Source of the DNA: Dictyostelium discoideum
Lineage: Eukaryota
Length of the DNA stretch: 64,000 nt
Direction: 5' to 3'
Assembly: GCA_000004695.1 (NCBI GenBank)
Contig: CM000151.3
Span: 3,456,001 to 3,520,000, forward strand
A program made the position numbers and the translations under genes. The stretch's first letter is position 1; every line of letters begins with the position of its first letter. The notes beneath the pieces were generated by a model that was not told the DNA's origin, searched no databases, and was given only the letters and a program-made list of their open reading frames with translations. Below are positions 169 to 47,366 of the stretch, one piece after another.

Positions 169-6721
<6,553 letters not shown>

Positions 6722-7610: not shown

Positions 7611-9086
7611 ATGGTTGTACTTTCAAAATATAATGAATTTACAATTATTAATCAATTAAATGATGATAATTCAATATTATTTTTTAAAATTTGGAGAAAT
7701 ATTGTATTAAAAAAAAAGATATGGCAAGATGCAATTTTAATATCAAAATATGATATTCAAAATATTAAAGAAATAAAACAATTAAGAGAACATAAATATA
7801 GAGAATATATTAGAACAATTAAATTTGTTGATCATTTCAATGATTTATTAGAAGAAGGTGATATTCCAAACAATGTTTCAACAATTGATTTTGGTGTAGC
7901 ATTTGATACAAGAATTAGTGCTAGAGTTTTACCAAATTCGCTTACAACCCTTGACTTGGGCATACAATTTAATCAATCCATTGATTGTGGTGTTTTACCA
8001 AAAAATTTAAAAAATATTTATTTTAGTCATTTATTCAATAAACCAATACTAGTAAACTCAATTCCAAATAGTGTTAAATTAATTGATTTTAGAAATTCGC
8101 CATCGTTTAATACTGAAATTAAAATTGGATCATTGCCAAACTCATTAACCTCTTTAAATTTAGGGTATAAGTATAATATTAAATTTAAAGAAGGAGTTTT
8201 ACCAAACTCTTTAAAAAAATTAATAATTTCAGAAAATTACAATTTTCCAATTAAAAAAGGTGATTTACCAAATAGTATAACTAGTTTAACATTGGGAAAT
8301 TATGATCAAAATATTAAATCAGATGAGTTACCAGAAAGTTTAAAAGTTTTAATAATGGGCCCACTACAAACAAAACAAATTGAAATTTCAAATTTGAAAT
8401 ATATTGAAAAATTGACATTATCAGATTACTATGATGTTCAATATAAAGATTTTCCAAAATCTTTAAAAATTTTAAATTTAGCTTATAAATATAATAAACC
8501 AATTTTACCAAATTCTATTGACAATATTACTGAAATTACATTTGGTAGTGAATTTAATCAACCTATTGAATTGAGTACATTCAAGTCAATTAAGAAATTA
8601 GTATTTGGTGCTAGATTTAATCAGGAATTGAAGCCATATACTTTGAATGATGGTATTGAGAGTTTATCATTTGGTTATTTTTATAATAAAAAATTTCAAT
8701 CAAATAGTTTACCATCGACATTAACTTATTTAAAACTTGGTAGAGAATTTAATCAAATAGTTGAGCCTGGTATATTCCCAAACTCAATCAAACATTTAAT
8801 CTATAGTAATTTAAATAAATCACCATTGACCATTGGTATATTACCATCATCACTTGAAACTTTAGAATTTTTATTTTTCAATGCACCAATTGAGCCATTT
8901 TCAATTCCAAATGGTTGTAAAAAGATTATTTTAAGTTCACAATTTCAAAATCATTCAATTTCAAATAATGTTATACCAAATACTTGTACTGAATTAACAA
9001 TTTCTGAATTATATAAAAGAGAATTATTAGATTTAAATTCATTACCAAAAGGTTGTAAATTACTATATGCTTTATTAATTAATTAA
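7611..9086 (+). CDS. FNIP-repeat protein (Dictyostelium FNIP repeat family)
   Basis: Single 491-aa ORF with about 15 tandem ~22-aa repeats of the form LPNSLTxLxxGxxFNQPI, which is the FNIP repeat signature. The ATG sits directly after an A-run. Confidence 0.8.
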   Translation: MVVLSKYNEFTIINQLNDDNSILFFKIWRNIVLKKKIWQDAILISKYDIQNIKEIKQLREHKYREYIRTIKFVDHFNDLLEEGDIPNNVSTIDFGVAFDTRISARVLPNSLTTLDLGIQFNQSIDCGVLPKNLKNIYFSHLFNKPILVNSIPNSVKLIDFRNSPSFNTEIKIGSLPNSLTSLNLGYKYNIKFKEGVLPNSLKKLIISENYNFPIKKGDLPNSITSLTLGNYDQNIKSDELPESLKVLIMGPLQTKQIEISNLKYIEKLTLSDYYDVQYKDFPKSLKILNLAYKYNKPILPNSIDNITEITFGSEFNQPIELSTFKSIKKLVFGARFNQELKPYTLNDGIESLSFGYFYNKKFQSNSLPSTLTYLKLGREFNQIVEPGIFPNSIKHLIYSNLNKSPLTIGILPSSLETLEFLFFNAPIEPFSIPNGCKKIILSSQFQNHSISNNVIPNTCTELTISELYKRELLDLNSLPKGCKLLYALLIN

Positions 9087-10918: not shown

Positions 10919-13700
10919 TTATTGTTGTTTTTTATCATGATTATCAACAATTTTAGCAATTGAAAATTGACATAATAAATTTTTAGCAGCATTTGAATGA
11001 GCATAAACTTCACCAGTAAACATTGAAGTTGCATCTTTACCAATACCCATTTTAATGTAAGCTAAACCACCTGGGTGATCATTAACAAAAGATTCGACAT
11101 CTAATACGGTTTTGTTGATTATCATTAACTTTTTATTTTCTTTTTCAACCAAATTATTAAATTCATCGATTGTCATTGATGGTAAATCTTCTTTATTGAT
11201 ACCCCAATAGATTGATTGTTTCTTTGCGTCTAAATGTTTTTGGTGCATTTGAATCATACCTTTTTCAATTTCATTTTTGGAGAAAGTTTTCAAATCATAA
11301 GCCAAGCCTAAATAATACATTGCAGAGATCAACCATTTAGTTGGATCATATTGATAGAATTTATAAGCGTTTCTATAGTCATTTGGGAATTCATGATGGA
11401 AGTTATGATAACCTTCACCAAATGTTAATATAGCAGTCACAACTGAATCCTTTGGAGTATGTTCATCATCGTATGGAGAGTCACCTAAATAATGAGCCAA
11501 TGAATTGACCAAGAATGTGGAATGTTGAACTGTAACGAGACGAAGTACACCAGAGTAGAAATAACCACCAGCCCAATCACCCCAACCTAAACCAGCTACC
11601 AATGTTGGGAAAACGAGACCCATAAAAGTGGCGATTTTAATGTAATGTTTATGTTGCCACATAACCCATGGATCGGCGTTAAGGTCGTCAATGTTTGCTC
11701 TACCGATTTTCTTTGGATCTTGTTTGAACATTAACCAAATGAAATGGGAATGCCAGAAACCCAATGAAGCTGAATATGGATCTTTATCAGTATCGAGATA
11801 ACGATGATGAGCACGATGATCTCTTGACCACCAACGACATGAACCTTCGACAGCACCTGCACCAAATAGCAACAAGATAATACGAACTGGTAAAACTGCA
11901 CTATAAGCCTTATGAGCCCAAAGTCTATGATAACCTGCTGTAATACCCATACCAGTGAAATGATAATAAATAAATGACCAAATAAATGTTTTCAATGAAC
12001 ACTCTACATTAATTAGACCATAGAGACCAATGAATGGAATACCAATTAAAATGATAACATGTAACCAATTGATTGATTTTAAAAATTCTTTAACAGTACG
12101 ACTTGTACGACTATTTGAAACGGCTTCAGCGGTTGCTTCTGCTTTCTTTTCTTGATCTGGTACCAATGGAGCTGAATCAAATGGTGAGAAAATTTCATTT
12201 GAAAAGTTTTCACTACGGATAATTAATTCTTTAAATAATTCAGTTTCAAATGTACATTCATAAATATATTCACCCCAACTCTTTTTAAATGAATTATAAG
12301 CTTTTCTTAGATTATAATGTGGAATTGAAACTGCAATTTGTCTTGGTAATGAAAAATTAATATCTTTAACAATAAATTCAAACCATTGTGGATATGTAAT
12401 ATGTACTAAATATTTTTCAACTTCAGATGATTTCTTATCACCTTTGTTATTGTTATTATTATTATTTGATTTTTCTAATTTTGAAGCAACTTGTAATTCT
12501 TCATAAAATGGAATTGATGGTAATAATGAAGCAGTTGAAAGTAAGAAATGTAAAACTAACCATGGTGCGAACCAATAATTAAGGAATCCACTTACACCTA
12601 CAAATTTAAACATCATTGGGAAGAAAATAAATCCAAAAATGTAAACAATTGCAATTGAAACGATTGCTTTGGTTTTATCTTTTTTATCTGATAAATTTTT
12701 AGTTGAGAAATAATTTTCAGACCAATTAATAATTGATAAAATCCAAAAGAATTTACCAGTTGCCCATTGTCTAATTGGATTTGTACTTTCGGTTGTGGTA
12801 TGTGCATTAATCTTGAATTGTTCACCATTTAAAACAGCTGTCGATTTCTTTTCTGCATTATTCTTTTCTGAAATCTTGTAAGATTGGAATGGATATAACA
12901 ATGGTAACATTACAATTGTTCCAATAATTGAATTAACTAATGGATTCTTTGAAAAAGTTTTATGAATACAATCATTACCAATTACCATTAACTATTAGTG
13001 TGAGAGGTTGTCATATTTTAAAAGATATTAAAAAAAAAAAAAAAATAAAAAATAAAAAAAAAGTTTTGTTGGGTTAGTGATTAGATATTTTGGAAAAAAA
13101 AAAAAAAAGATGCAAATAAAAAAAAAAAATTTTAATTATTTTTAATTATTATTTTTTTTTTTTTTTTGTTTTTGTAAAATGGGTGCTTTTTTTTTTTTGA
13201 TGGTAATCAAAAAAAAAATAAAATAACAATCATTGTGATTGAAAAAAAAAATTTGGTAGTCTGGAACTGTGACGGTTTTTTTTTTTTCCCACTTGAAAAT
13301 TTCAAGTCACTTTCAGAAAAAAAAAAAAAAAAAAAATTTTGTTTAAAAAAAATAAAAAAAAAGTGAAAATGGAAATAATAAAAAATGAATGAATAATAAT
13401 TGTATTACTTACACCAGTAACTGAGGCACCCATTAACATCCAACCAATTGGGGTTAAGTAAGATGGCATGAGAGTAATGAATGTTGCACTTAAACCAATG
13501 AATAAGATTGTTATTAAAAGTGAACATGCTGATTTAAAATTACTTGTTTCAAAAACTTCTTTTGGAAGAGATTGTAAAATTTGATCAATAGTTAATTCTT
13601 TTGGTAATGATTTTGGTTGTTTTCTAATTGGTTTAATATTTCCATACATAACAGATGGATAAACTTTCTCCTTTAAAGGAGCTCCACTTCCTTTACCCAT
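10919..13700 (-). CDS. Tri-domain membrane desaturase: N-terminal FAD2-like domain lacking all three His boxes, then an OLE1-type delta-9 (stearoyl-CoA) desaturase, then a C-terminal cytochrome b5; exons 13700-13413 and 12991-10919; ~786 aa
   Basis: Exon 1 (within ORF 13302-13700) resembles the FAD2 N-terminus and first TM (KQPKSLPKELTIDQIL...WMLMGASVTG), with donor GGT|GTAAGT at 13412. The acceptor ctaatag| at 12992 joins in phase 0 to the 689-aa ORF. The joined sequence VTG|LMVIGNDCIHKTFS aligns without a gap to FAD2 LTGIWVIAHECGHHAFS. The positions of His box 2 (PFQSYKISEKN versus PYFSWKYSHRRHH) and His box 3 (RQIAVSIPHYNL versus HVAHHLFSTMPHYN) are likewise non-His. Downstream, in the same ORF, the classic SCD motifs are all present: HRLWAH, HRAHHR, HNFHHEFP, then a b5 heme motif HPGG. 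Residues ~310-689 align over their full length to yeast OLE1. Confidence 0.6.
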
Positions 13701-15005: not shown

Positions 15006-18000
15006 TTACTTTTTAAATTTGTTTAAAGTACTTGTACTTGTATTTAAATCTAATAAAGTTGAAGTTAATTGATTAACCATTGAAGTTAATTGTGAATCAG
15101 AGTCAGAATCTTTTTCATCAGAAGCAGCTTTAACACTTGATAAAATTTTAAATTGACAACTTAGTGTTTGTAAAACACCAATACCATGACTACATCTTGT
15201 TTGTAACATTTTATTTGAAGTTGGAGTTGATTTAATATTATTTGAAACCTCTGTTGAATATTTATTTAAAAGTATAGATATATTTCTACCACATAATAAA
15301 ATTTGTTTTTTATCACCAATTTTAATTGCATTTGCATAAGCTTCCAATTCTTTACCAATTGTACCAAGTTGTTCATTACCTGATATATTTGACATTTGAT
15401 TTGCTGCATTAATACATGAATCTTCTAATGATGCACCTTTATCACTTGGTTTAAAAGTATTAATTGGTTGTGGTGTTTTATTTGGTATTGGTTTTGTTGC
15501 TGTTGTAGTTGCTTCTGTAGTAGTAGTTGTTGTTGGTGGTACAGTTTTAGGATTTGTAGATTGAGGTTGAGTTGTTAATTTAATTGGTACTCTAGTTTCA
15601 ATTGGTCTAATTGGTTTTGTAATTGTAATATTATTTGTATTTGTTAAAATTGGTTTTTGAGGTTGTGAAGATGATCTTGGTTTATAATTTACTTGAGCTG
15701 TTGAAATGATTTTACCATTATTTGATGATGATGATGAAAATATTGGTTTAGTTGAATTTGTTTGAATTGAAACATAACGTTCAATTTTATTTGGTGATTC
15801 AACAATTGGCAATAGATTATTTGACTTAATTGAATCAACCAATTGTTTAATATCTTTTGATTTTGATTGAGAGGATTGTGATAGTTTGATACGATTATCT
15901 TCAATCTTTGGTTGATTAATACTTTGAATTGAATTTATTAAATTACAAAGTGAAGAGATTGACATATCCTTCTCAGCTTTAATTGTGTCTGTCAATTTAG
16001 ACTGTTTCAAATTCTTTAAATAATCTTTTGAAATTGAGTTAACATCAGATAATTTAGATTTCAATTGTGATTCAAATTCTTTTAATTCTTTTTCATTTAA
16101 ACCTTGTTGTTTCAATAATGGTATTAAATGATTTGATTGTAAATTTGATAGTTTTGAAATATATTCATCAATTTGTTTTGAATTATCATTGGTCACTGTT
16201 GAAACATCAATTGAATCATTTAATTTAATTAAAGTTGCTTGATATTGTTTAATTGCATTTTTAAATTGGAATATAGGATCAATTGAATCTAATTGATTTA
16301 AAATTTCATAAATTGGTGATTCAATTTTAGTTTGTAAATTCTCTAATAATTCTCTCTTCTTTTGATCATTATTATTATCATTTAAACAATTATTTGATGC
16401 AACAATTAATTGAGGTGTTAAAGTTTCAATTTCTTTTAATGATTTACCAATTATTAATTTTTTACTTTCATTTAATTTTATATCATTATTAATTAATTGT
16501 TGTTTTAATTTTGAATAATTTTCTAAAATTTTTTTTGTAGTTTCTTGAATTTTTACATTATTATTAGCATTATTATTATTATTAATTGGTTGTTGAGTTG
16601 ATTGTCTTGATAATTTTTGAATTAAATTTGAATGATTTAATAATAATTGTAATGGTGTTGATAATTGTTCATTAATTAAATTATCTAAAGTTTGTTGGAA
16701 TTGTGATCTAACTTTTTCAAATTGTTCTCTTGAAATTGGATTTAGGGGTTGTTTTAAATATTGATTAATTTTATTTGATAAATCATCGGTGGAATCATTA
16801 TTTTTACCATTTAATTTATTTTCTAATTTATTAATTGCATCTCTAATTCTTTGTTGTCTTTCTTTATCTAAATAAGATTGTTGTCTTGATAAATCGAAAT
16901 TTGAAGAATCTATACATTTTCCAGCCAATTTCTCTAAACGTTTTAAATTTACTTTAAATTGATTTTCATCTTTAATTAACATACCATTATTATCGATTTT
17001 ATTTGAAAGTTTTTTAAATTGGTCAGAGTAATAAGGTGTTTTAGAAATTAATTTATAATTTGAATTATTATTTGAAGATTGTTTTTCAATTTCATTTAAG
17101 TTTCTTTTAATTTGATTATTAATGAAACCAACTTTCTTTTGATAGGATGCTTCGGTTGGTATATCTTTTGATTGTAACATTGATTTAATAGTTTGTAATT
17201 GTAATGGTATTAATGTTGATAATTCTTTTGAACATTCTTTAATTATTAAATTTCTTTCAAAATCTGCATTATTTTGATTAGCATCAATTAATACTGCCGT
17301 TGAACTTGTTAATGAATCTGCTAATGATAATATTTCTTGATGTAATTTAACTAATGATCTTGATGATTCAACAACACCTTTTGAATCTGAATCTAATGCA
17401 TTTGATTCTAATTTATCTAATTCTTTCTTTTCATCATTAATTAATTTTTTAATCTTTTTATCTTCTTCTTCATCATCATCATCATCATTATTATTATTAT
17501 TATCATTGTTATTATTATTATTATTATTTTCAATATTTTCTTTATCAATTATTTGATTAATATTTGGATTTAAAATTAATTGTTCTAATGGTTGAATAAT
17601 TTGATCTAATAATTGTTGATGTTTTTTCTCTAATTCTTTATCATTTGGATTTGATTGTAATTGTGTTGCTTGTAATGTTAATGTTGGTATAATTGAATTT
17701 ATTGATTGTTTAATTGTATTTTGAGAGATTGTAGTTGGTGATAAATCTTGTTGTTGTTTACCTTTACCAGTTGCAAAGAAAATTGATTTTGAACAATTAT
17801 CAACACTCTCTGAAACTGTATCTAGGATTGTTAAAAGTTTTTCAATTTGATCATCACTTTTTTCACTCTCCAAGAATGATAAAGCAGCTTCAACTTGATC
17901 AACGATAGATTTCTTTACAGTTTCCAAGGAATTTGCTAAAAGTAATTGAATATTTGGATCCAAGGTTTCAGAAACTTCTTTTGAAGTCAAATGATTTGAA

Positions 18001-20756
18001 GCCAATTTCAATAGTTCACTTTGTTGATAAACTATTTTTTCAATTGATTGAGATATTAAATCATCTTTACCAACTTGATAAGCAGTTTCAATATAATATC
18101 TTGAATTAATTTGATGTTCTTTAAAACCTTTAATTATATTCTCATTAATTGGGTGTGGTTTTAATAATAAAGCTTGTTGATATGATGATAATTCTTCAAT
18201 TAATGGATTTAATTTTAATAATCTTGTTAATTCAATTATTGATTTTTTAACAGTTTTACAAGCTTTTGTTAATTGTGGATCATCATTAATTTTTGCAGTT
18301 TTACCAGCCAATGCGATTGAAGAGGATATTGAATTTTTAAATAGATTTATTGAAGAATCAATTTGATCTTTAAAATCTTGACTATTTGAATTTTGTTTAA
18401 TTTCATTACCCAATTGAATTAGTTTATCTTGCTCACCAATTAATTGTTTCAATGTAACAACTGATTTATTTGCTTCATTATTCTTTAAATATTGAATTAA
18501 ATCATTAAATAATTTTAAAAGTTTTTGGTCATTTGATAGATTTTCCAATTGTTTCAATTCTTCTAATCTTTCATTATCTCTTTTAATTTCATTTTCTTTA
18601 TTTTCTTTAATAATCTCTTTATTAATCTCTTCATTAATTCCATCAATAATTTCATCATTTAAATTTTCAATTGGTATAATTACTTGACGACCACCACCAT
18701 CACCATCATTAGTGGAGGAAGATGGTAAATTTGATAAATTTGATATATTATTAATTATATTATCTAAAATATATGATAAATTATCTTTTGAACCATTTAA
18801 ATCTTTTGATAATTCTTGATTTAATTGATTTTGATAAGATTCTAATTGTTTAATTTGATTTTCAATTAATGGTTGATCAAGCATTTGATCTTTGTAATTA
18901 TAAATTATAGAATTAATTCTATTATTTATATCTTTTTGAGTTGATTGTAATTTTGGTGAATTTGGTGTAACCGATTGTGGATGGCAATTTAATAATTGTA
19001 ATTTTAATAATGGTACAACTTCAAATGATTTCAAACAATCAATTAATGATTTTGATAAATCTGATATCAATTGATTTGATTTTAAAAACTCTTGTTTTAC
19101 ATCCTTATCAAATGGTGATTTTGAAAATTTATTCATACCAATATCTCTTCTATTTTGAACTTCTTTTAAAAGTTGATCAATTGTTTTCTTTACAAATTCT
19201 TTTAATAATGTATCATTTGATAATACTAATTCAGATTCAATTAATCCAACTAAATTTGCATTATCATTTTCTAAATCTTTTAATAATTTATCAATTAGTT
19301 TTGAATTTTCTTCAATATTATTATTATTATTATTGTTACTATTGTTGTTGATATTATTTAATAAAACTTGATTTGAAGAATTTTCTTGTTTTGATAATAA
19401 TTCATTTGAATCTGAAATTGTTGATGGTTCCATTAATGATTGAATCTTTGATAATGGTAATTTCATTGAATTTGAAATATCAGTAAATTGTTTTCTATTT
19501 TCAAGATTTGTTGAATCTTTTAAGTAAAGTTTTGCAGCTTGAATTTGTAATGGTAATAATTCTGATAATTTTGAAACTGCTTCATTAATTTCTGGATTAA
19601 TTGAACTATTATTATTATTATTATTATCATCATCTGGTGTTGTTGATGTACTTGTTATTAATGCTTCAATTTGATGTTGATTCTTTGCTAAGTGTTTTAA
19701 TGTACCAACTATTGCTTGAGTATTATTTGCAATTGAATGATCTGATAAAATGGTTAAAACATCTTCTTTTGCTTTAATTGCATTTAAAAATTGATCTTCT
19801 TTTGTTGAAACTATACCATCGATTGAATTTAAACAATCTTGAATTGATTCTAAACCTTCAATCATTTTATTAATTTCATCATTCTTTACATTTTGATTAC
19901 CTGATGATCTTGTTACTAATGTTGCTGATTGAATATATTTTTGAATTAAATCATTCTTTAATTTATTTATTGATTTTTCTAAAATCTCTTTTTCATTTTT
20001 ATTAATATTATTATTATTCTTTATATGTTGATTTAAAGTATCATTTAAAATTGGTATTAATTGTTGAATTGAATTTGAAATTGTTTCAGTTGCCATTGGA
20101 TCACCTCTACATGCTGCTCTTAATTCTTCAATACAACTTTTAGAAATACCTCTTATTAAATCATTTAGTAAATTATTATTTTCATTCTTATCAATATTAT
20201 TATTATTATTAATTTCATTATTAATTTCAATACTATTATTATTATTATTATTATTACTATTATTATTATCATTATAAATTGTTTTAATATTTGAAGTTGA
20301 ATATTGTGATGGAATTGGTGATTGAATATAATTATTTACATTTGTAAATTCTGGTAATGATAAAGTTGGTGAATTTGTTTGGATTAAATTAAAAGTATGA
20401 TTTAATTGATTTAATAATGAATTTTGATGATTTATAAATTTTTGTTTTTGTGATGGATCGTCTAAATCTGAAAAGATATCATTAACAATATCAATTAAAC
20501 GATTGGCATCCTCTACCAATTGTTGTGATAATTTAATAATATCATCGTCATCGTCATCTATAAATTGATTTTGTAATGGAGATGATAATTGATTCTCCTT
20601 TGCTTTAACTTCTAAACATGATGAATATTCAATTAAATTTGAAATAGTTTGATTTACTAATTCTCCAAATCCATTAAACTCTTCTCTATCAATCATACCA
20701 AATGAATTTTCATTATTTTTAAATTGATTTTTACAAGTTTCAATTAAATGTTTTAA

Positions 20757-28396: not shown

Positions 28397-29149
28397 ATGA
28401 AACAAATAATTTCACCATTACTTTTAATAGTATTATTATTAATTAGTTTTTCAAATGCATATCAAAAATTATATGTAAATTTCATTCCATTTGAAAGTGT
28501 ACAATGTAGTGGAAATCCATCAGGTATTGGTTATGGCGGTTTAATTAATACTTGTTTCACTTTTGATAATTCTAGAAATTGGTTATTTAAATATTTAGAA
28601 CAAGAAAATTCAATAAGTTTTACTCAATACTATAACAAAGGAGGTGTAACAGAACTTTGTGAAATTAAATCAATGAAAACTCGTACTGCTTTAATTGGTG
28701 AATGTGTCTCTGGTAAAGATTTAGTATTCAACTCATTTTATCAATCAGTAAATTATGATTCATCATCCTCCTCATCATCCTCATCATCAACACCAGAAAT
28801 TTATTATCTCATTCAAATTACCAAGGATCAACCATTCATTGCACCAAGTTCAACTGTTGTATCACATAACTATGGTGATTGTACTGATGGCGATAGTGAT
28901 ATTATATATTATGAAACCTTTTCAAATCAAACTCAAGTTTTTATCCCAATCTTTGGTACAGTTAGTGAATTTTACTGTTTAAATAATACCCCAATGGCAA
29001 TGACCTGTGAAAATAATGGAAGTAATTGTACTAATCCACAAGACCAAACTACGATTTGTGAAGCCGTTTCTCCATTCTTTAATACTACTGCCTCTGATAT
29101 GAGTTCAGGTGATACATTATATACATTTAATAATTATTGTAGTTATTAA
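28397..29149 (+). CDS. Secreted protein, unknown family (250 aa, signal peptide, poly-Ser tract, about 10 Cys)
   Basis: ATG after an A-run, N-terminal signal peptide, no C-terminal hydrophobic anchor. Confidence 0.5.
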   Translation: MKQIISPLLLIVLLLISFSNAYQKLYVNFIPFESVQCSGNPSGIGYGGLINTCFTFDNSRNWLFKYLEQENSISFTQYYNKGGVTELCEIKSMKTRTALIGECVSGKDLVFNSFYQSVNYDSSSSSSSSSSTPEIYYLIQITKDQPFIAPSSTVVSHNYGDCTDGDSDIIYYETFSNQTQVFIPIFGTVSEFYCLNNTPMAMTCENNGSNCTNPQDQTTICEAVSPFFNTTASDMSSGDTLYTFNNYCSY

Positions 29150-30159: not shown

Positions 30160-31074
30160 ATGGAATCATCATCATCATCATTATTAGATAAAAAAGTTAT
30201 AATATTTTCAGGTGGTACAGATGGTATTGGTCGTAATTCATTAAATTATTTAATTTTAGAAGATAATTTAAAATTTATATTACCAGTTAGAAATATTGAA
30301 AAAGGTGAAAAAGTTGTAAAAGAATTAAAAGAAATTAAAGCAAATGTTGATATAAAATTAATGAAAATGGATTTATCATCATTTGAATCAATTAAAGAAT
30401 TTGTTAAAGAATTTAATGAATTGAATGAACCATTGGATATATTAGTTAACAATGCAGGTTTAATCAATACGGAATTTAAAACCACATCAGACGGTTACGA
30501 ATCGACAATGGGTGTAAATCATTTGGGTCCATCATTATTAACACTTTTATTATTACCAAAATTAAATCAATCAAAGCATGGTGGTAATATAGTATTCGTC
30601 GCATCGAAAATGCATGACAGAGTGACACAATTGGATTTTGAGCAAACTTTAGGCAAAGAAGATAAAAACAATACTGATTTCTCAAGTAGTAATTATGAAT
30701 ATTCCAAATCTAAATTATATAATATTTTATTCTCTAAAGAGTTACAAAATAAATTAATTGAAAAGGGTAGTGATATTAAAGTGAATTCACTACATCCTGG
30801 TTTCGCTGTAACTCATTTATTCGAAAAGCATGGTTGGTTTGCAAATAATTTAGTTTTACCAGTGTTGGTTTATTTCAAAGGTAATAAATTAGATGATATG
30901 GGTAGTGCTTTAGCAAATTTAACTTTAAATAAATTAAATGAAAAAGGTAAATACTTTACTTTAACAAAAATTACTGAACCTTCAAAATTTGCTTCAAATC
31001 CAAATAATACTATTAATTTATGGAATAAAACTTGTAAATTATTATCAATTGATTTTAATAAAATTAATTTATAA
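30160..31074 (+). CDS. Short-chain dehydrogenase/reductase (SDR; retinol-dehydrogenase/WWOX-like)
   Basis: Cofactor motif SGGTDGIGR (the TGxxxGxG variant), NNAG, and a catalytic YxxxK (YEYSKSK). 304 aa. Confidence 0.8.
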   Translation: MESSSSSLLDKKVIIFSGGTDGIGRNSLNYLILEDNLKFILPVRNIEKGEKVVKELKEIKANVDIKLMKMDLSSFESIKEFVKEFNELNEPLDILVNNAGLINTEFKTTSDGYESTMGVNHLGPSLLTLLLLPKLNQSKHGGNIVFVASKMHDRVTQLDFEQTLGKEDKNNTDFSSSNYEYSKSKLYNILFSKELQNKLIEKGSDIKVNSLHPGFAVTHLFEKHGWFANNLVLPVLVYFKGNKLDDMGSALANLTLNKLNEKGKYFTLTKITEPSKFASNPNNTINLWNKTCKLLSIDFNKINL

Positions 31075-31450
31075 AAAAAAAAAAAAAAAGTAAGATGTTT
31101 TTGAAATAATAAAAAAAAAAAATAAACAAATAAACAATTTTCTTTTTTTTAAGAATTTATTTTTATTTTTTTATTTTTTTTTATTATTTTTTTATTTTTT
31201 TTTTACTACCTTTCTAATATAAATTTTTTTTTTTAAATTATAAATATTAGATGTAATCAAAAAATATAAAAATAAAAATAGACATTTTTTTCAAATTTCC
31301 AAGAATTCAAAAAAAAAAAACACCAAATTCTGGATACACTATTTTTTTGTTTTTTTTTTTATTGGTTTTTTTTTAAAATTTTTTTTTTTTTTTTCATTTT
31401 TATTAACCTCATAAATACAATCACCAAAATAGTAATAGAGATAATAATAA

Positions 31451-31482
<32 letters not shown>

Positions 31483-31558
31483 TAATAATAATAAACCTTT
31501 GAAAAAAAAAAAAAAAGAAAAATAATAATAAAAAATAATAATAAAAAAAAAGAAGAGA

Positions 31559-34500
31559 ATGAATTCATTATTAAATAATTTAATAATTGATTATGAATAT
31601 GACTTAATTAAAGTTCATCATCATATTCAAAAAAATATTTTTATTTTCCCATTTAAAAAACAACATTATCATTCAACTGTACTTGAATGTTTAATTAATT
31701 TATGTAGTAAATTAAAATATGACGAAAATGAAAATTTAAATTCATTAGATCAATTTAAAATAATTTTTTATAATGAAAGGTAATAAAAATATATAATTTT
31801 TTTATAACTTTTTTAATTTAATAATATAATATAATTAAACAAATTAAAAAAAAAAAAGTAAATTTTTAAATAAAAATTTAAAAGAATATTTAGAAATTTT
31901 AAAAAATTCAAAAGAAATTAATAAACATGTAATTTGTGATTATTTTGAAAAAGATAATAATGGTAGCGAAGAAAAGAATCAAAATTCATCAATTGTTTTT
32001 AATTTTTTAAATTGTTTTAAAGATTATTTATCAATGGATATTATTGAATTTATTGTTAGAGGTATTTCATTTCAAGTACGTAGTTATTGTAATCTTATTA
32101 AACCAATCGAGCAATGGAAACAAAAAACCTATCAACAAAGATATCAACAATTCAAGAAAGCATTGCATTTAAATAATGAAGTTTATAAAAGAATCGTTTG
32201 TAATGGCGTTTGGAAATCGGAGAAATTAGATTACATTTATCGTTATAAAAGTGACCAGTTATCATTGGTTGGTATAATTGAAAGTGATTGCTCAGATTTA
32301 TTCATTTCAACATTATTAATCGATTCAAATAGTTATGAACAATTGGAGAATGTTTGGAGATTAATTTGTAATTTTGATTCATTTTCAATTGCTTCCAAAT
32401 TTTTAATTGAATTTTTCAAATTGGATAAGGTTAATAATAAATTAAATTTTTCAATTCATCCATCATCAGATGCAAATGAAAATTATAAAAGAACTAAAAC
32501 ATCAACCAATTCAAATTTATCGATTGATCTCGTTAGATTATTAGAGTTTACAACTACAAACTTTAGTATCAATGTTGCAAAACTTTTAATTTCAAAATTC
32601 CCAACATTTATAACTTCAATACCATCAAGAAATAGTTTATGGGGTATTGAATCAAGATCTTCGCTAAATCCAATTGAAAATCATTTTAGAATTTTAAATT
32701 GTTCTTTTGATTTTAATAATCATCAAATTCCAATTGATAAACAAAAAGATTATATTAATTTATTTACAAAAAATTTAATTCATTTTAATACTGAAATTAA
32801 TGAAATTGAAGATTTAATTTTAAAAGAACGATATCATATATCAATTAGATCAATTAATAATAATAATCATGATGATGATGATTATGATGATTATGATGAT
32901 GATGATGATCATCATTCTGGTTGTAACAATAATAATAATAATAATAATGATGGTGATCATAATGAAGATGAAAATAGTATTAAAGAAGAAAGTTTAATAG
33001 AATTTTCAAATTATAAAGTTGATTCAATGATTTCAAGATTATTAAAATATAATGCACCGTCAACAACTATTATTGCTTTATTATCAAATTTAGTTTGTAA
33101 TCATATGGGTGTTTCTCAAAGAATTTTAATACTTTCAACATTAATTGAAGAAATTCAAATGATAGAATCATTATTAGTTCAAAATGATAGTTTTAAAACT
33201 TTTATGCTTTGCGAATCAATGGTTTCAACACCAAATAGATGGAGTAAACAAAGTATTCCATTGGTTTTCTTTGCTTATATTGGTAGTGATATTTTAAATT
33301 TAAAAGAACGTCCAATGTTTTATAAATTCTTTGATTTAAATCCAAGATTATTATTATCAATCATACCAGTACCATTAATTTTTAAAACTTTTTTAAGTTG
33401 TTCAGATATAATTAGAAATAATTTTGAAGATGATTTAATTAATTTTGAAGATGATGATTCAAGTAGTGTTAATTTCTTTGGTTTCACTTCAAACTTTTCA
33501 AATTCTGATCAAGATTATTTGTCGGCTTTAGAAACTTGTTTTGAAAATTCAAATGTTTTCAATGATCAACAATTAAAACAAATGGCAAGAAAGCTATTAA
33601 CTTTTTCAAAGAGAGAAAATCAATCTAGAATCGCTGAATCTGAACTATTGGAAGAGTTGGAACTTGAAGAAAAAAGAAAGAAACAAAAACAACAAGAAAA
33701 AATTAAAAAAAGATTAAAAAGAGAGAAAAGATTAAAAGAAAAACAAGACTTACTCTTAATTAAACTTGAAAAACAAAAAGAAAAACAACTTGAAGAACAA
33801 ATGAAAAAAAGAGAAAAGAAACTACAAAAATTGGAAAGAAAAAGATTATATAAAAAACTTCAAGATGATGAAAAACAAAAATTAATTGAAAAACAAAAAC
33901 AAAAAGAAAAAGAAAAAGAATTATCAAAACAAAAAGAAAAAGAATTTGAATTATTAAAACAAAAAGAAATTGATGAAATTAAACAAAAAAGTATTCAAGA
34001 AATTGATGAAATTAATAAAAATATTCAACAAAATCAATTAAAAATTGATGAAATTAATAAAAAATTAGAAATTAAAGAAATTCAAAATTTTCAATTACCA
34101 TTATTAAATCAACAACAACAACAACCACCACCACTTCAATTATTAAAACAACAGCAACAACAACCATCATCATCATTAACTATTCAATTAGAATCAATAA
34201 CACCAATTTTAGAACCAAAAAATGATAATGTAGTTTTATTAAAATCATCAATTGAAACTCCAATTGATTCTGTAAAGAAAATTCAATCAATTATTGAAAT
34301 TCAATTAGAAGAAGAAAATCAAAAGAAAAAAGAAATGGAAACAATTGATGAATATGAAGAGATTAATATTAATAAAAAACAAATTAATAGTAATATGAAA
34401 TGGGGTGGAATTGGTGAACCATCTTGGATTTCTGTTAAAAAGGATAATAAAAAATCAAAATCAACAATAACAACATCAACAACACCAACAACAACAACAC

Positions 34501-34587
34501 CAGCAAAAGTAATTACATCACAATTCAAAAATGAACAAACTAAAAAATTAATAATTGAAAATAATAAAAAACAAAATTTAATCAATG

Positions 34588-34659
<72 letters not shown>

Positions 34660-35984
34660 TAAATAATATAATTCAAGATGAAGATTTTGTATCAATTGGT
34701 AAATTTAAATTTAATAGAAATGAATCAAATATATTAGGTAGAGGTTCAAATGGTACATTAGTATTTAAAGGTTTATGGAGTGATAAAATACCAGTTGCAA
34801 TTAAACAAATGCAAAAAGCATTCAATCCACTTATCAATAAAGAAGTTGAAGCATTAATTTCATTAACAAGTAAAAATTGTTCAAATATGATTAGATATAT
34901 TGATAAAGAGGAAGATAAACTTCATGTATATTTAGGTTTAACATTATGTGATGGATCATTACAGAATTTAGTTGAAAGTGGTAAATTAAATGATTTTGTT
35001 ATTTCATCAAACAAATCAATTATTGAACTTGCAAAAGATATTCTCTTTGGTATTCAATTCCTTCATTCTCATGATATTGTTCATAATGATTTAAATCCAC
35101 GTAATATTTTAACATTAATTGGTAAAACTAGTAATAATAATAATAGTTCAAATAACTCATTCATTATATCAGATCTTGGATTAAGTAAAATGGAAGTTGA
35201 ATCATCATATTCATTTACAAGTAATATACCAACAGGTCAAGGTGGTTATCATCCATTTGAAGTATTACAAAGTAAAAGAATGACAAAATCTGTCGATATA
35301 TTTTCATTGGGTTGTATTTTATTTTATCTTTTAACAAATGGTCAACATCCATTTGGTAATGATAAATTATTTCGTATAGTTAATATAATTTCAAATAAAA
35401 TGAATCTAACTCCATTGAATTCAAATCAATTGGCTTGTACTTTAATTAAATCAATGATTTCAAAAGATGAATCAATTAGACCAACCATCCAAAATGTTTT
35501 AAATCATCCATTGTTTTGGAATTTAGAAAAGAAAATACAATTCATTGATGCAGCTTTAAATTTAATTAAAGAACCTTCAAACTCAAGTTACAATTCAAAG
35601 TTAACAAAACAATTAAATCATTGTGATGATAATGATGAACCATTTTTAAATGATTCTTGGAATCATTTAATTGATGTAACCAATCTTTTAACACCAACAA
35701 AAGGTTCAAAAATAACCATTTCATATCAATATGATAAAGTTAGAGATTTAATTAGATTCATTAGAAATACAATTGCTCATCATAAAGAAATTAAAAGAGC
35801 AATCATTCAACAATTTCAAAATCAACAATCACGTCCAAATTTAGAAGTTTTAGAGTATTTATCAAGTCAAGATTCTATCTTATTATATTTTGAATCAAAA
35901 ATTCCAAATTTAATTCATCATATTTATCAACAATTAAAACAATATTCTTTAACTATTGATTATTTATTTAATTTTTATAATTAA
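31559..35984 (+). CDS. IRE1-like protein kinase with C-terminal KEN (RNase-like) domain, Dictyostelium irl-type, no luminal sensor domain; exons 31559-31779 and 31859-35984
   Basis: Track ORF 31559-31783 is exon 1, with donor AG|GTAATA at 31780. The acceptor aaaag| at 31858 restores the frame into the 1316-aa ORF; the upstream stretch 31860-32033 is open in that frame. The product has a K/E-rich coiled-coil middle. The kinase domain carries [14 protein letters not shown] and DLG. The C-terminus, [23 protein letters not shown]...[18 protein letters not shown], aligns to the IRE1/RNase L KEN-domain start. Confidence 0.65.
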
Positions 35985-36273: not shown

Positions 36274-36930
36274 TTATAAATCAATTCTAAAAAATTTTCT
36301 TTCAAAACCATATAACATTTCTTGATGATAATATTTAAGACCAGCTTTTTGAATAATTGATAAAGAACCAAAATTATCAATTCTGGCAGTTGCATAAATT
36401 GTATATAATGGTTTTCCAATTAAACCTGGACCGGTTGAAATTAAATGATTTTCTTTTTTAATTGCATCAGACATACAATGTACTAATACTTCTAACATTT
36501 CTGAACCATAACCTTTACCCCAATGATTTTTATCTATTATAATTGCCAATTCAGCTTCACCATCAACTTTACCATACATAAACATTACATGACCAATGAA
36601 ATCATTATTTAATTTATTAAATACCATTAAACCATTACAAACATCTTGATTTTTCCAACCTTCTATCCATTGATCAACATCTTGGTCAACTTGCTCCTTT
36701 GTTTGAACTCCATAGCCATATTTAACTGTATTCACTGGATCACATAATAATTGATAAAAAGTTTCTCTATCTTTAATATCATTAGTTATATTTCTAATTA
36801 ATAATCTATCTGTAATAATTTTAACATTTAATCCTTTTTTTTCTGATTCATCAACTTTATCATCAATATAAAATTCAACTGTAGATTCATTAATTTTATT
36901 ATTATAATTTTTATAATTATAAATTGTCAT
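36274..36930 (-). CDS. GNAT-family N-acetyltransferase (RimJ/RimL-like)
   Basis: The motif HWGKGYGSEMLEVLV is an acetyl-CoA binding motif A. 218 aa, ATG after an A-run. Confidence 0.7.
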   Translation of the reverse strand: MTIYNYKNYNNKINESTVEFYIDDKVDESEKKGLNVKIITDRLLIRNITNDIKDRETFYQLLCDPVNTVKYGYGVQTKEQVDQDVDQWIEGWKNQDVCNGLMVFNKLNNDFIGHVMFMYGKVDGEAELAIIIDKNHWGKGYGSEMLEVLVHCMSDAIKKENHLISTGPGLIGKPLYTIYATARIDNFGSLSIIQKAGLKYYHQEMLYGFERKFFRIDL

Positions 36931-37479: not shown

Positions 37480-38770
37480 AATTTTTCTAATCCATTCCTT
37501 ATGATCAATAAGAGTTATATCTTCTTCATTTGAAATTGATTTTAAATATTTTGTTAGATGGAATAAGACATTATCACCATACTTTTTAGCATCTTTAATT
37601 TTAAAAGGTGGAACATGTACACCATTCTTTGGATTCATTGCAAAGTTTTTGGAGAGATCATCAACATGTAAAGTATTTTTCATACTAAAGAATTTACCTA
37701 AATGTTGATGTTTCCAAATTACTTCCAATGCTTTTACATTATGTTTAATTTTAGTTCTCTCTTTACCATTGATGGTTCTATAGGTTGTTACCTTAAACAT
37801 TAATGTTTGATCCATTACAAAACAAATTTTAAAACGTGGATTAGTTAATAATCCCAACTCTGTTAATTTAATTTCAATCCATTTCCAACTAGTTTGAGAC
37901 CAAATTCCAATATCATAATGTTGATAGGATTGTACTAAAAATTCTTCTAAATGTGGTCTTTTCATATCTATATTTATTTAAAAAAAAAAAAAAAATTAAT
38001 TATTTATTTTATTTTATTATATTATTTTATTTTATTTATTTTATTTTATTTTATTTTTATTTACTTTCAACATCTTGATCTTTAAAATCTAAAATTGTAT
38101 GATCTAAATCTAAAACTAATAATTTTTTATTTGGTCTTGGGTCATTAATTAAAGAGATATCATTTGAACGTTCAATCATTGCAAGTAATTGATTTTTATT
38201 TTTTTCAATATGAGAGATTTCATCAGAATCTGGGATATAATCAAATTCGAAATCATTGAATACCTCATCGGTATCACCACTTGTTTTTGGAACGTCAGCA
38301 ATAATATTTGACTCTGGTGTACCCATCATAATGATACTATGATTATCTTGAATTGATAATGATTCTATTATCATTTCATCAGTTGGTTGTTTACCTTTTG
38401 ATAATCCTAAAATTTTTTGTCTCTTTGATAATACATTTGTCATTGTTTCCAATTGTCTCTTTAAATCAAAAACTGTTGAACTCTTTGAAATCAATACTTT
38501 ATATTCTTTACCATTCCATTTGGTTTTTATTGTAATTTTTGAATTTTCTTCATTTATTATTGTTGTTGTTGTTGTGGTTGTTTTTGTTTTTAAATCAGAG
38601 TCATTTATAATATTAGTTGTTGTTGTTGTTGTAGTTGTAGTAGTGGTATTAGTTGTAGTGTTATCATTTGTGTTATTACTATTAGAATCTGTTGTTGTTA
38701 TTATACTATTTATTGTTGACTCTGTTGTTGTTGGTGGATTAGTTGTTGAGGATGAAACTATTGTATCCAT
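37474..38770 (-). CDS. Ubiquitin-like domain-containing CTD phosphatase (UBLCP1 homologue); exons 38770-38065 and 37967-37474
   Basis: Exon 1 holds a Thr/Asn-rich N-terminus, a UBL domain (KWNGKEYKVLISKSSTVFDLKRQLE) and the HAD motif LLVLDLDHTILDF. Donor A|GTAAAT at 38064 and acceptor aaatatag| at 37968, phase 1. Exon 2 (MKRPHLEEFLVQSYQHYDIGIWSQTSWKWIE...) matches human UBLCP1 [30 protein letters not shown]. Confidence 0.75.
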
Positions 38771-41428: not shown

Positions 41429-43044
41429 TTATATATAGTTTAATAAAACATACTTTTGATTTCTTTCATCTAAATTTTTCATTGGCGTCTTTTGAATAAT
41501 TTCTAAAGTTTTATCTTGAACTAAAATAGTATTACATTTAATAGTATTGCTAATTGTATTGAATTTATTTTTAATAGTATTTTGTTTAGTAGTAGTTGTT
41601 GTTGTTTGTTGATTGCTTTGTTGTTGTTGTTGTTGTTGTTGTTTTAATTTATCATTTAAAATTACAGATTCATAAGAAGGTGGTGGTGGTAATGGTTTTG
41701 ATCTATTAATTACAGTATTTGAATTTAAAACTACTGAACCAGAGTCATTGTTATTACTAGTGATTGTATTATGAATTACGACTGAACCAGTATCAATTGA
41801 ACCACTGAAAACATTTGGTTTATAAATTACAGAACCAGAAGTAGTTTCACCAATATCATTACTACTATTTGAGTTATTATTTAATAATTTACTTAAAAAT
41901 TGTGGTTTATTATTATTATTATTATTATTATTATCATTTGGTTGTTGTTTTGGTGAAACTGAAGGACCAATTGATTTTCTTTTTTTTGATTTTAATTTTA
42001 TAGCCATTTGAGTTAATTCTTTTAATGCATCTGGTTTTGCACTTTTAATAAAAGGATGATCTAATAATTGAGAAGGTGACCATCTTTCATTGATATCTTT
42101 AGTTAAACATTTATCAACGAATGATACAAACTCTGGTGACCATTTCTTTGGATCTTTAAAAGTTGGTGGAGGTCTTCTACCAATCATATACATGGCTCTC
42201 ATTGGATTAACCTCGGAAAGTGGTGGTTCACCATCGGCCAATTCAATGGCAACTATACCTAATGACCAAACATCGATTTTATTATTGTAATCGGTTTGAT
42301 TTAGAATTTCAGGTGCCATCCAATAGGGCGTACCTGCGATTGAACCTTTGGAAAAAGTGGATTGGATTTGTTGAGAGACGCCAAAATCTGCGATTTTCAC
42401 TTGACCAGTTTCATCCAATAGAATATTTGCCGATTTAATATCACGATGTATGATTTGTTTAGAATGTAAATAAACCAAACCCAATAATGATTGTTGAAGA
42501 ATCAATGAGATCTCTTTCTCTTTAAAAGTTTTACCAATCGATTGCATAATATCATTAAAAGAGGAAAGTGAACAATAATCCATCAAGATCCAATATTTAT
42601 TCTTTAACATTATCGATCCAAAATAACTAACAACATATGGATTATTACATTTCTTTAGAATTTGAATCTCTTTACTAATTGGTTCAACATCATTTGCTTC
42701 GAAAATTTCAAATTCTTTAATTGCAATCGATGTATTTGATGATTTATGAATTGCTCTATAAACTGATCCAAATGATCCTTCTCCTAATTTCTCTTGAATT
42801 TCAAATGATGTTTCACCTCCTGAACTCCAATTTAAATCTAAATCAACATGAACTTTATGTACTAATGAATTTGGTTGTGATATATCAATTTCTTTAAATA
42901 ATTAAAAAAATAAAAAATTAAAAAAAAAAAAAAAGTTAATAATAAAAAAAAAAAAAAAAAAAAAAATTGAAAAAAAAATTAAAAAAAAATTTTAGATTAT
43001 AATTTACCTTTTGGGTTTGATCCACTTCTAAATAATCTAACCAT
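41429..43044 (-). CDS. STE20-family (MST/GCK-like) serine/threonine protein kinase; exons 43044-43008 and 42891-41429
   Basis: Exon 1 ATGGTTAGATTATTTAGAAGTGGATCAAACCCAAAAG|GTAAAT; acceptor tttaaag| at 42892, phase 1. The kinase motifs GEGSFGSVY, AIKEF, HRDIKSANILL, DFGVS and GTPYWMAPE are present, followed by a low-complexity C-terminus. A possible extra 3' exon is described in the findings. Confidence 0.7.
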
Positions 43045-45161: not shown

Positions 45162-45588
45162 ATGTTAAATCATAACCAAGAAGAAAATGATATTCAAGAA
45201 ATAATATCTGATACTGATTCAGAAACGGAATCAGAATCTGATTCAGATTCAGAGAGGAATAAAGGAAAATTCAGACATAATAGTAGATTTGAATCATGTA
45301 AAAGATTTAAATCAAAAGCAAGTAAATTTAATATTAATAATAGAAAAGAAGTTATTGAAATTAGTGATGATGATGATACAGAAGATGAAGATCTTCAAAA
45401 AGCAATAGCATTTTCTTTAGGTACAACTACTATCGGAAATAATAATAATAATAATCGTTCACATATATTATCAATGATTAGAAATAAAAATAATTCTTCA
45501 CCACCTTTACTTGAAAATTCAATTGATAGAAATCAATTTTATTCAAATAAAAAATCATCATCATCATATAATAATTTTAACAATAATT

Positions 45589-45670
<82 letters not shown>

Positions 45671-45675
45671 TAATA

Positions 45676-45710
<35 letters not shown>

Positions 45711-46199
45711 GATAAAAAAGAGAGTGGTACAATTATTGGTGGAGTTTTAATTGATAAAAATGAGAATTATAAATTTAAACCAAATTCATTTTATTTAAAT
45801 TCAACAAATGAACAACCTAGAATTTGTACAATTAATACATTATCATTTAAAGATTTAATAAAGAAACCGGGAATGGTTGGAGCATTGGTAAGTGGATTTG
45901 CACTTGATCCAGAATGGGTAATAAAAGAGATACGAAAAGAACATGGTAACAAAGTTAAATTTACATTTGTAAAGAATTATAGTAAACCTGAAACAAAAGG
46001 TCGCCATGCTATTAATGATTTCATTACAGTTATTAATCCACCATTATTTAATTATCAACTATATCATTCAAAATTAATGATTTTCACGTTTGTTGATTTA
46101 GTTAGAGTTGTAATACCATCTTCAAATCCAACAAAATTTGATTATTCAGGTTGGGGTCAAACAATTTGGTTTCAAGATTTTTTAAAAAAACAACCAAAC

Positions 46200-46276
<77 letters not shown>

Positions 46277-46506
46277 AACAACAACCACAACAACAACTAC
46301 TACTACTACTACAACTGCAACTGCAACAAATAATTCAAATTCAAATTCAAATAATGAATTGGGTATTGAATTTTTAAATGGTTTAAAACACTTTTTAAAA
46401 AGTTCTGGTGTTGAAGAGTTTGCTTTTTTGGATGATTTTGATTATTCAAATTGTGCAGTTAAATTAATAACATCAATCCCAGGAATTTATAAATTAGAAA
46501 AATCAA

Positions 46507-46569
<63 letters not shown>

Positions 46570-47047
46570 GTAATGATGAAAATGTTGATAAAACAAGTTC
46601 AAGTTTTGGTAGTGGTATTTATACATTACAAAAATATTTAAATCAATATTACAAGGATCAAGAAAATAATACAGTAGTAAATGAAAATCAATCACCTCCA
46701 TATAAATATGTAAAGGATTTATATTGTCAAACATCATCTTTAGGTGGTGATAGAAGTGATTTTAGAAATGTTTTTACAAATTACGTACTATGCAATAATC
46801 AAAATCAAAATTCAAATAATCAAAAAAGAAATAAAAGTGTATTGAGTGACAAGCCATTACATATTATTTTTCCAACTAAAAATTGGATAAGAGGTAATCC
46901 AATTAGAGCTATGACTTCAGGTTGTTTATTTTTATCAGTTAAAAACTATGATAATGATAATTCATCTTTTAGTCATTTTTCTTCAAAATATTTTTATCGT
47001 AAAGATTTAGTTCATCATAGTAAAATTATGGTTGGTACAACTACCTT

Positions 47048-47087
<40 letters not shown>

Positions 47088-47366
47088 AATAATAATAATT
47101 ATAATAATAATGATGATAGAATAAAATATGATTGGGTATATACTGGTAGTCATAATTTTTCTTTATCAGCTTGGGGTGCTTTCCAAAAGAATGAAAGTCA
47201 AGTATCAATTTCAAATTTTGAAATTGGTGTTTTATTATTGAATCCAAATCCATCATTAAATGATTTCACTTTACCTGATTGGGTGAGAAATATTCCTTTC
47301 AATATACCATCAAATTTTTATAAACCAAATGAAGTTCCATTCATTCAAGAAGTAGAATTTAATTAA
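45162..47366 (+). CDS. tdp1: Tyrosyl-DNA phosphodiesterase 1 (TDP1) with an N-terminal UIM-like motif and three polyAsn tracts
   Basis: Two HKN motifs: YHSKLMIF with LVRVVIPSSN...WGQTIWFQDF, and HHSKIMV with GSHNFSLSAWG. These align to human TDP1 H263/K265 and H493/K495. DEDLQKAIAFSLG near the N-terminus is UIM-like. Confidence 0.75.

Follow-up and report, generated by a model that had tools for sequence, protein, structure and literature searches.

We analyzed a 64,000-nucleotide window of the Dictyostelium discoideum genome (contig CM000151.3 of assembly GCA_000004695.1, positions 3,456,001 to 3,520,000 of the forward strand) and focus here on a two-exon gene that encodes an IRE1-type protein kinase domain joined to a C-terminal ribonuclease (RNase) domain of the KEN type (Table 1; positions are those of the window). 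The gene is almost certainly irlB of D. discoideum, either DDB0220009 or its duplicate on chromosome 2, DDB0217342, the two entries for IrlB in Table S2 of "The Dictyostelium Kinome" (Goldberg et al. 2006, PMC1420674). An exact-sequence look-up of the 1448-amino-acid (aa) spliced product and of the 1316-aa product of its longest open reading frame (ORF) gave no match, and as the reference protein is absent from the protein collections, which apparently lack the D. discoideum reference proteins altogether, the identity was taken from the supplement of that paper. A comparison with the annotated irl genes had been suggested in a preliminary description of this DNA, and the spliced model proved identical to the published IrlB over the first 399 aa, the residues readable in Table S2. 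The Gly-loop segment of IrlB (RNESNI) starts at residue 1027 both in Figure S1 of the paper and in the spliced model, and over these 399 N-terminal residues and the kinase-domain segments the kinase motifs, the kinase-domain numbering and the two-exon model are shared and no difference was detected.

Table S2 assigns IrlB to the group Other and the family IRE, lists its motifs as VAIK, HNDLNPRN, and DLG, and predicts it to be active ("a"). The gene is one of six IRE1-like paralogues (irlA to irlF), the outcome of a dictyostelid expansion of the IRE family, and according to PMC1420674 all six have an RNase(L) domain and none appears to be membrane bound. The gene, its exon structure, the odd catalytic loop, and the missing membrane anchor thus all appeared in print in 2006. 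What interest is left lies in the biology: dictyostelids retain six predicted soluble IRE1 paralogues with an apparently intact RNase site, and these provide a natural test of whether a KEN nuclease can be under a control other than stress inside the endoplasmic reticulum (ER) lumen or 2',5'-oligoadenylate (2-5A), and of whether a wild-type IRE1 relative can dispense with phosphotransfer.

Table 1. Positions of irlB, of the parts of its product, and of other features in the window
Feature	Position	Strand	Remarks
irlB, whole gene	31559-35984	+	two exons; coding sequence 4347 nt, 1448 aa
irlB exon 1	31559-31779	+	221 nt; aa 1-73 and two bases of codon 74; ATG at 31559
irlB intron	31780-31858	+	79 nt; GTAATA...AAAG; phase 2
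irlB exon 2	31859-35984	+	aa 74-1448; stop codon 35982-35984
Irl-specific N-terminal region	31559-33599	+	aa 1 to ~654; predicted all-helical; broken by the intron and a D/N-rich run (32856-32978)
K/E-rich charged helical linker (predicted)	33600-34127	+	aa 655-830; K+E 44-48% per 50-aa window
Poly-Asn run	34590-34655	+	22 N, aa 985-1006, just ahead of the kinase domain
Protein kinase domain	34725-35516	+	aa 1030-1293; Pfam Pkinase, 5.8e-34
Catalytic loop HNDLNPRN	35082-35105	+	aa 1149-1156; aligned to yeast IIHRDLKPQN
DLG in place of DFG	35172-35180	+	aa 1179-1181; Mg-binding Asp kept
KEN (kinase-extension nuclease, HEPN-type) RNase domain	35592-35948	+	aa 1319-1437; Pfam Ribonuc_2-5A, 1.7e-10
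RNase active-site residues	35724-35780	+	Y1363 (35724-35726); R1376-N1377-x3-H1381 (35763-35780), Rx4H HEPN motif
Sec7/BIG-type Arf guanine nucleotide exchange factor, ORF	493-4965	-
FNIP-repeat protein, ORF	7611-9086	+
Fatty-acid desaturase fused to cytochrome b5	10919-12988	-
1895-aa ORF	15006-20696	-	no Pfam family at E<=1e-4
CfaA/B/C counting-factor-associated family, ORF	28397-29149	+
Short-chain dehydrogenase	30160-31074	+	directly upstream of irlB
GNAT acetyltransferase	36274-36930	-	directly downstream of irlB, convergent
Ubiquitin-domain protein	38057-38770	-
Second protein kinase, fragment	41429-42610	-	without KEN domain
Tyrosyl-DNA phosphodiesterase	45162-47366	+
tRNA-Met (CAT)	59101-59172	-
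tRNA-Met (CAT)	62508-62579	+

The assignment of the C-terminal part to the kinase-KEN superfamily is supported by profile, alignment, and structure searches. In Pfam, the Pkinase domain is followed directly by Ribonuc_2-5A, the order that defines the superfamily, and both matches are above the curated cut-offs (41.6 bits against 23.3 for Ribonuc_2-5A). The best relatives of solved structure are yeast Ire1 (3fbv, 1.4e-48) and human IRE1alpha (~6e-46). An AlphaFold model of aa 1014-1448, computed with 14 homologues, reached a mean predicted local distance difference test score (pLDDT) of 83 and a predicted template modeling score (pTM) of 0.85, and the best 50 matches found for it in the PDB by Foldseek were all IRE1 kinase-RNase structures with template modeling (TM) scores of 0.69-0.87, the leading one being 4z7g_B (E 9e-26, TM 0.76/0.87). 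Searched alone against the PDB, the KEN region matched human IRE1 (2.4e-6), and none of the RNase L chains came up at E<=1; the module is therefore, by its sequence, of the IRE1 type and not of the RNase L type.

The RNase site looks intact, as all four catalytic residues align with those of yeast Ire1: in a phmmer alignment, the active-site segment of which involves KYHSSKLMDLLRALRNKYHHF, Y1363, R1376, N1377, and H1381 of IrlB pair with yeast Y1043, R1056, N1057, and H1061. The residues give an Rx4-6H motif as defined for HEPN RNases (PMC3710099), together with a Tyr upstream of it and an Asn following the Arg, and are likewise kept in four homologues (P0001, P0004, P0006, and P0019, introduced below). 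Two claims of the preliminary description, an IRE1-like C-terminus made of kinase and KEN domains and the integrity of the latter, thus hold, the first by the Pfam scan, the yeast alignment, and the Foldseek matches and the second by the pairing of the catalytic residues.

The kinase domain contains the Gly loop GRGSNG, K1056 of the VAIK motif, the alphaC Glu, D1151, N1156, D1179, and the Glu of the APE motif, as well as a short insert, rich in Asn and Ser, that separates the catalytic loop from DLG. Its catalytic loop is unusual in having Asn at two positions, those of the HRD Arg (R796 of yeast) and of the catalytic-loop Lys (K799 of yeast), with the catalytic Asp and the Asn kept; in addition, the P+1 loop has a Gln in place of the Thr at the position equivalent to 201 of protein kinase A (PKA). 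IrlB does not show the canonical RD loop HRDxKPxN with DFG and is, on account of the change of the HRD Arg to Asn, a non-RD kinase. The preliminary description had taken HNDLNPRN and DLG as a hint of a pseudokinase. Alignments to yeast Ire1 and to the family, and Table S2 of PMC1420674, confirm the two motifs; the variant loop speaks for the hint, and the retention of the Lys, alphaC Glu, catalytic Asp, Asn, and DFG Asp, along with the published score as active, speaks against it.

Table S2 of PMC1420674 gives the motifs HNDLNPRN and DLG for IrlA to IrlE, and for IrlF they can be seen in Figure S1, so that, as far as this supplement goes, HNDLNPRN with D[LM]G is common to all six D. discoideum Irl proteins. 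The same combination was found in P0001 of D. purpureum (DICPUDRAFT_80608, locus L001) and in three proteins of Acytostelium subglobosum (P0004-P0006), and the remaining family members in the same alignment all have HRDxKPxN, mostly with DFG and once with DMG. The identity of the motifs in distant dictyostelid groups argues for selection and not decay, and the variant loop is, judging from this alignment and the published motifs, a fixed trait of the family across Dictyostelia. IrlB combines all the characters by which we delimit the Irl subfamily, namely predicted solubility, HNDLNPRN, D[LM]G, a P+1 loop without Ser/Thr, a C-terminal KEN domain, and a phase-2 intron ~221 nt after the ATG, and the motifs of the subfamily are common to P0001, P0004-P0006, and P0019, an IrlF-like protein (assembly GCA_054859355.1, locus L002). 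Among the A. subglobosum proteins, P0005 (SAMD00019534_033420) has an alignment gap at the RNxxxH segment of the KEN domain and only a partial Ribonuc_2-5A match (4.9e-4, profile positions 89-126), which points to an error in the gene model or else to a family member with a dead RNase.

The effect of the variant loop on catalysis can be read in two ways. Equivalents of PKA K72, D166, and D184, as well as of G52, E91, and N171, are all present in IrlB and would predict a competent kinase, the equivalent of K168 being Asn. We weakly favor the reading that, as far as regulation of the RNase is concerned, phosphotransfer would be reduced or absent rather than active with an altered specificity. 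The closest precedent is the yeast mutant Ire1(D797N,K799N), which had no detectable kinase activity and an RNase still responsive in vitro to nucleotide and in vivo to ER stress (Rubio et al. 2011, PMC3082176), the KEN output there being therefore independent of phosphotransfer. The mutant shares with IrlB the Asn at the position of the catalytic-loop Lys; it is engineered, whereas IrlB is natural and conserved, keeps the Asp equivalent to D797, and has the HRD Arg changed as well.

The other reading, which we regard as possible but doubtful, is that IrlB is a fully active kinase, perhaps of dual specificity or directed at tyrosine, and that its regulation or output lies mainly in trans-autophosphorylation or in phosphorylation of other substrates, in the way of canonical IRE1, with the RNase subordinate to it. 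The NPRN end of the loop carries an Arg four positions after the catalytic Asp (D+4), in the manner of the HRDLAARN loop of tyrosine kinases, which has an Arg at D+4. Such an Arg is also found in family members with the canonical HRDxKPRN (P0010 and P0011) and is thus no specific compensation for the lost Lys; the candidate explanation of a tyrosine-kinase-like compensation is weakened to that extent. The P+1 loop of the Irl clade reads GQGGY, GQEGF, or GHGGY, as against GT/SxGW in other members, and the absence of Ser/Thr at PKA position 201 was taken in PMC1420674 as a hint that Irl kinases accept tyrosine. While the VAIK Lys, the catalytic Asp, and the DFG Asp on which the published "a" is based are indeed there, the Lys of the catalytic loop, the residue contacting the gamma-phosphate, is Asn, and yeast Ire1 loses phosphotransfer when K799N and D797N are combined (PMC3082176).

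The divergence of IrlB from P0019 is unequal along the protein. The kinase-KEN part is identical at 78% of aa and 87% of nt positions, and the N-terminal region at 28% of aa positions; by the Nei-Gojobori method, the ratio of nonsynonymous to synonymous substitutions (dN/dS) was ~0.54 for the former (dS ~0.28) and 0.92 for the latter (dS 0.71), values that are rough and of qualitative use only, given a genome of ~22% GC and an N-terminal alignment with 28% identity. This mosaic pattern (window positions 31559-35984 compared with 3001-7475 of L002) could mean that the 3' half has undergone gene conversion or that the 5' half has diversified fast.

The near-neutral evolution of the N-terminal region (rough dN/dS of 0.92), the atypical kinase motifs, and the high redundancy created by the six-member expansion and the duplication of chromosome 2 in strain AX4 are what one would expect if IrlB were a decaying, functionless duplicate, a pseudokinase with a disused RNase. 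We consider this very improbable: the frame of 1448 codons is unbroken, the atypical motifs are identical among dictyostelid groups and thus selected, the RNase catalytic residues are all kept, the kinase-KEN part is modeled confidently by AlphaFold, and the same part is 78% identical to P0019 with a dN/dS of ~0.54.

The ~650 N-terminal residues form a dictyostelid-specific, fast-evolving region that is probably helical, although its helicity comes from a model of low confidence. Neither N-terminal half gave a Pfam match at E<=0.1. When 1.84 billion representative proteins were searched exhaustively with HMMER, the region had two matches only, P0018 (99% identity) and the IrlF-like P0019 (E 1e-9), and no ankyrin protein was among them; with D. 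purpureum, aa 240-367 also align colinearly, though weakly, with 237-356 (E 2e-5). A search by word index found no match to the N-terminal region, and a homologue search with the full-length protein was swamped by low-complexity words and returned just 3. AlphaFold placed helices throughout aa 1-660, with a two-sequence alignment and a pLDDT of 34.8 that make the model unusable for recognition of the fold. We also considered degenerate ankyrin repeats of the RNase L kind; these are not supported, as no Ank family of Pfam matched aa 1-660 even at E<=1, and a borderline Ank match occurs only in P0006 of Acytostelium. In P0001 of D. purpureum, a CxC...CxH pattern (CDCQEYKKHQTCIH) at ~aa 530-545 looks by eye like a SWIM zinc finger; it has no Pfam match and does not occur in IrlB.

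The preliminary description regarded the whole N-terminal ~1000 aa as low-complexity and coiled-coil sequence. This is correct in part: K/E-rich sequence is limited to ~aa 655-830 and clear low complexity to three runs at aa 407-447 (D/N), 822-846 (Q/P), and 985-1006 (poly-N), and aa 1-400 and 450-650 are ordinary nonrepetitive sequence homologous to other Irl N-termini. The low-complexity runs coincide with tandem-repeat DNA, at the poly-N run an AAT-type triplet array (34579-34657), and further tandem-repeat DNA lies at 33763-34089 in the K/E-rich linker. The K/E-rich linker is a possible coiled coil or single alpha-helix, and homologues have charged or poly-Q linkers of varying length at this site.

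IrlB is predicted to be soluble. Its first 25 residues have a mean Kyte-Doolittle hydropathy of -0.24 and include acidic residues, so that no signal peptide is seen, and neither a Pfam match to a luminal domain nor a conserved transmembrane segment was found, that is, none of the marks of the type I topology of IRE1; hydropathy and the text of PMC1420674 thus agree with the earlier claim that signal peptide, transmembrane segment, and luminal sensor are all missing. The most hydrophobic 19-residue window (aa 571-589) reaches 1.82, above the customary threshold of 1.6, and might suggest that IrlB is anchored in a membrane there as a variant sensor of ER or organelle stress. We hold this to be highly improbable: the segment contains a Lys and two Pro, has by eye no hydrophobic counterpart in P0019 or P0001, and lies inside the predicted helical domain (a low-confidence AlphaFold model), there is no signal peptide, and PMC1420674 sees no membrane-bound Irl protein.

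Exon 1 was listed mechanically as an ORF of its own (74 aa, 31559-31783), separate from the 1316-aa ORF at 32034-35984 on the same + strand. Excision of 79 nt, from a GT at 31780 to an AG whose last base is 31858, joins the two exons in frame at the predicted junction 31779/31859 (...AATGAAAG joined to TAAATTTTT...), where codon 74 encodes S. The nearest in-frame stop upstream of the ATG is at 31529. The frame of exon 2 is open from 31848, i.e., 186 nt upstream of 32034, and the Met at 32034 is therefore an internal residue, M133 of the spliced model. In a codon-usage model trained on the other ORFs of the window, the log-likelihood of exon 1 is +16.9 when read in the predicted frame, the other two giving -75 and -94, that of 31860-32033 is +23.1, and both the intron and the upstream spacer are negative in 6/6 frames; the GC contents are 15.4% in exon 1, 5.1% in the intron, and 10.5% in the upstream spacer. 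The intron is conserved in two homologous genes: that of P0001 has a 221-nt exon 1 and then a 76-nt phase-2 intron after ...DDFKNHYKE|F, and that of P0019 has an exon 1 of 224 nt, its phase-2 intron being 146 nt long and following ...DDFKNHYRE|C, compared with ...|S in IrlB. BLASTP of IrlB aa 1-406 against P0019 gave a single colinear alignment (aa 37-389 against 35-408, E 2e-17) that crosses the junction at aa 74 without interruption, and the stretch matched by HMMER extends over 8-579 of the query and 7-594 of the target.

Exon 1 is thus real by the conserved position and phase of the intron, the colinear homology over the junction, and the codon usage. The preliminary description was correct in proposing it and mistaken in calling it cryptic, since the published IrlB model has it as exon 1. 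That the gene instead begins at 32034, the first ATG in the mechanical ORF call, and that the 74-aa ORF is unrelated or due to chance deserves hardly any credence: the very low GC content of exon 1 (15%) and the weak alignment of its peptide alone with D. purpureum (z = 1.5), a result on which we do not rely, are what can be said for it, and it runs counter to the published model, the intron site and phase kept in two homologous genes (with exons 1 of 221, 221, and 224 nt), the two P0019 alignments spanning the junction, the positive codon-usage likelihood in the predicted frame only, and the 186 nt of open frame before 32034. The 74-aa public protein P0018, which stems from another assembly, corresponds to the unspliced exon-1 ORF reading into the intron (it ends ...YNER) with one difference (I9M), and presumably comes from another D. 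discoideum strain in which it was called by a prokaryote-style gene finder. Directly before the ATG lies an A-rich tract of ~125 nt (31426-31551) with runs of 25-30 A.

Compared with IRE1 (yeast Ire1p, human IRE1alpha, and Dictyostelium IreA), IrlB has a homologous kinase-KEN part with the same RNase residues (Y/R/N/H) and nucleotide-binding residues. It differs from IRE1 in the absence of signal peptide, luminal sensor domain, and transmembrane segment, in showing Asn for both the HRD Arg and the Lys of the catalytic loop, DLG for DFG, and Gln for the P+1 Thr, and in having as its N-terminus a 1000-aa cytosolic region for which the exhaustive HMMER search detected no relative outside dictyostelids. 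With RNase L it has in common a cytosolic, soluble build with a noncatalytic N-terminal region, a noncanonical kinase-like domain, and a C-terminal KEN domain. Published structures have shown the kinase-like domain of RNase L to be a nucleotide-binding dimerization scaffold. RNase L has N-terminal ankyrin repeats that bind 2-5A, whereas IrlB has no ankyrin-repeat match, and the KEN domain of IrlB finds IRE1 in the PDB and not RNase L at E<=1. IrlB would thus be RNase-L-like in architecture and nearer to IRE1 in sequence, and by the same comparisons the Irl clade groups with IRE1 and not with RNase L. One member of the dictyostelid Irl clade, P0006 of A. subglobosum (SAMD00019534_036070), itself has an RNase-L-like architecture, with HNDLNPRN, a KEN domain, and borderline ankyrin repeats (Ank_4, 2.3e-5).

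The protein has four parts, a ~650-aa helical N-terminal region, a K/E-rich linker, an IRE1-type kinase, and an intact KEN/HEPN endoribonuclease. The gene model, the identity of the domains, the retention of the RNase and nucleotide/Mg residues, the fixation of the loop in the family, and the lack of membrane-targeting features are observations, and from them we propose, by analogy with its relatives and with about an even chance of being right, that IrlB is a soluble endoribonuclease gated by self-association and nucleotide. In this scheme, the ER-luminal sensor and the transmembrane segment of IRE1 would have been replaced by the lineage-specific cytosolic N-terminal region and the charged helical linker, one or both of which might drive self-association on a cytosolic cue, the role as sensor being conjecture. 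The kinase domain would act mainly as a nucleotide-binding, dimerizing regulatory module, as in IRE1 and RNase L. Being of the non-RD type, it would not depend on phosphorylation of the activation loop, and its phosphotransfer may be reduced or altered. RNase output would need two juxtaposed kinase-KEN modules with nucleotide in the kinase cleft, and the paired KEN domains would cleave RNA independently of metal to leave 2',3'-cyclic phosphate ends. For IRE1, these steps go back to the work of Lee (2008) and of Korennykh (2009), both through their citation in PMC3082176. Taken as a whole, the identity as irlB, the four-part soluble protein, and this mechanism form the explanation that we think fits best and consider somewhat probable.

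Several points weigh against it. The yeast precedent is a double mutant from which the catalytic Asp, kept in IrlB, has been removed as well, and PMC1420674 scores IrlB as predicted active by K72, D166, and D184, residues that it has. Nucleotide gating, dimerization, RNase activity, trigger, and substrates are inferred by analogy, and the candidate coiled coil is predicted from composition. Pfam, HMMER, and AlphaFold reveal no recognizable fold or ligand-binding domain in the N-terminal region. A full-text literature search found no experimental work on any irl gene, the matches being unrelated acronyms. A Dictyostelium ER-stress review and a 2026 paper on regulated IRE1-dependent decay (RIDD) deal with IreA only, and no mention of irl or of a paralogue was found in them.

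A broader and more speculative idea, which we think unlikely but worth stating, is that the Irl proteins are an amoebozoan counterpart of RNase L: soluble sentinel endoribonucleases whose fast-diverging N-termini each sense a cytosolic cue of their own, for instance a pathogen or stress ligand or some cellular component that is damaged. If this were true, recognition of the cue would dimerize the nucleotide-loaded, phosphotransfer-poor kinase-KEN module, which would then cut RNA, and the six-fold expansion with a conserved effector and variable N-termini (78% and ~28% identity, respectively, between IrlB and P0019) would mirror the evolution of immune-receptor families.

The window around irlB is extremely AT-rich, with ~22-25% GC in coding sequence and ~10% in spacers, and the neighboring genes (Table 1), some of them typical of Dictyostelium, such as those of the FNIP-repeat and CfaA/B/C families, have no obvious functional link to irlB. 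A scan for bacterial promoters and terminators gave matches at background level and is irrelevant to a eukaryote. The two tRNA-Met (CAT) genes are oppositely oriented, with ~3.3 kb between them.

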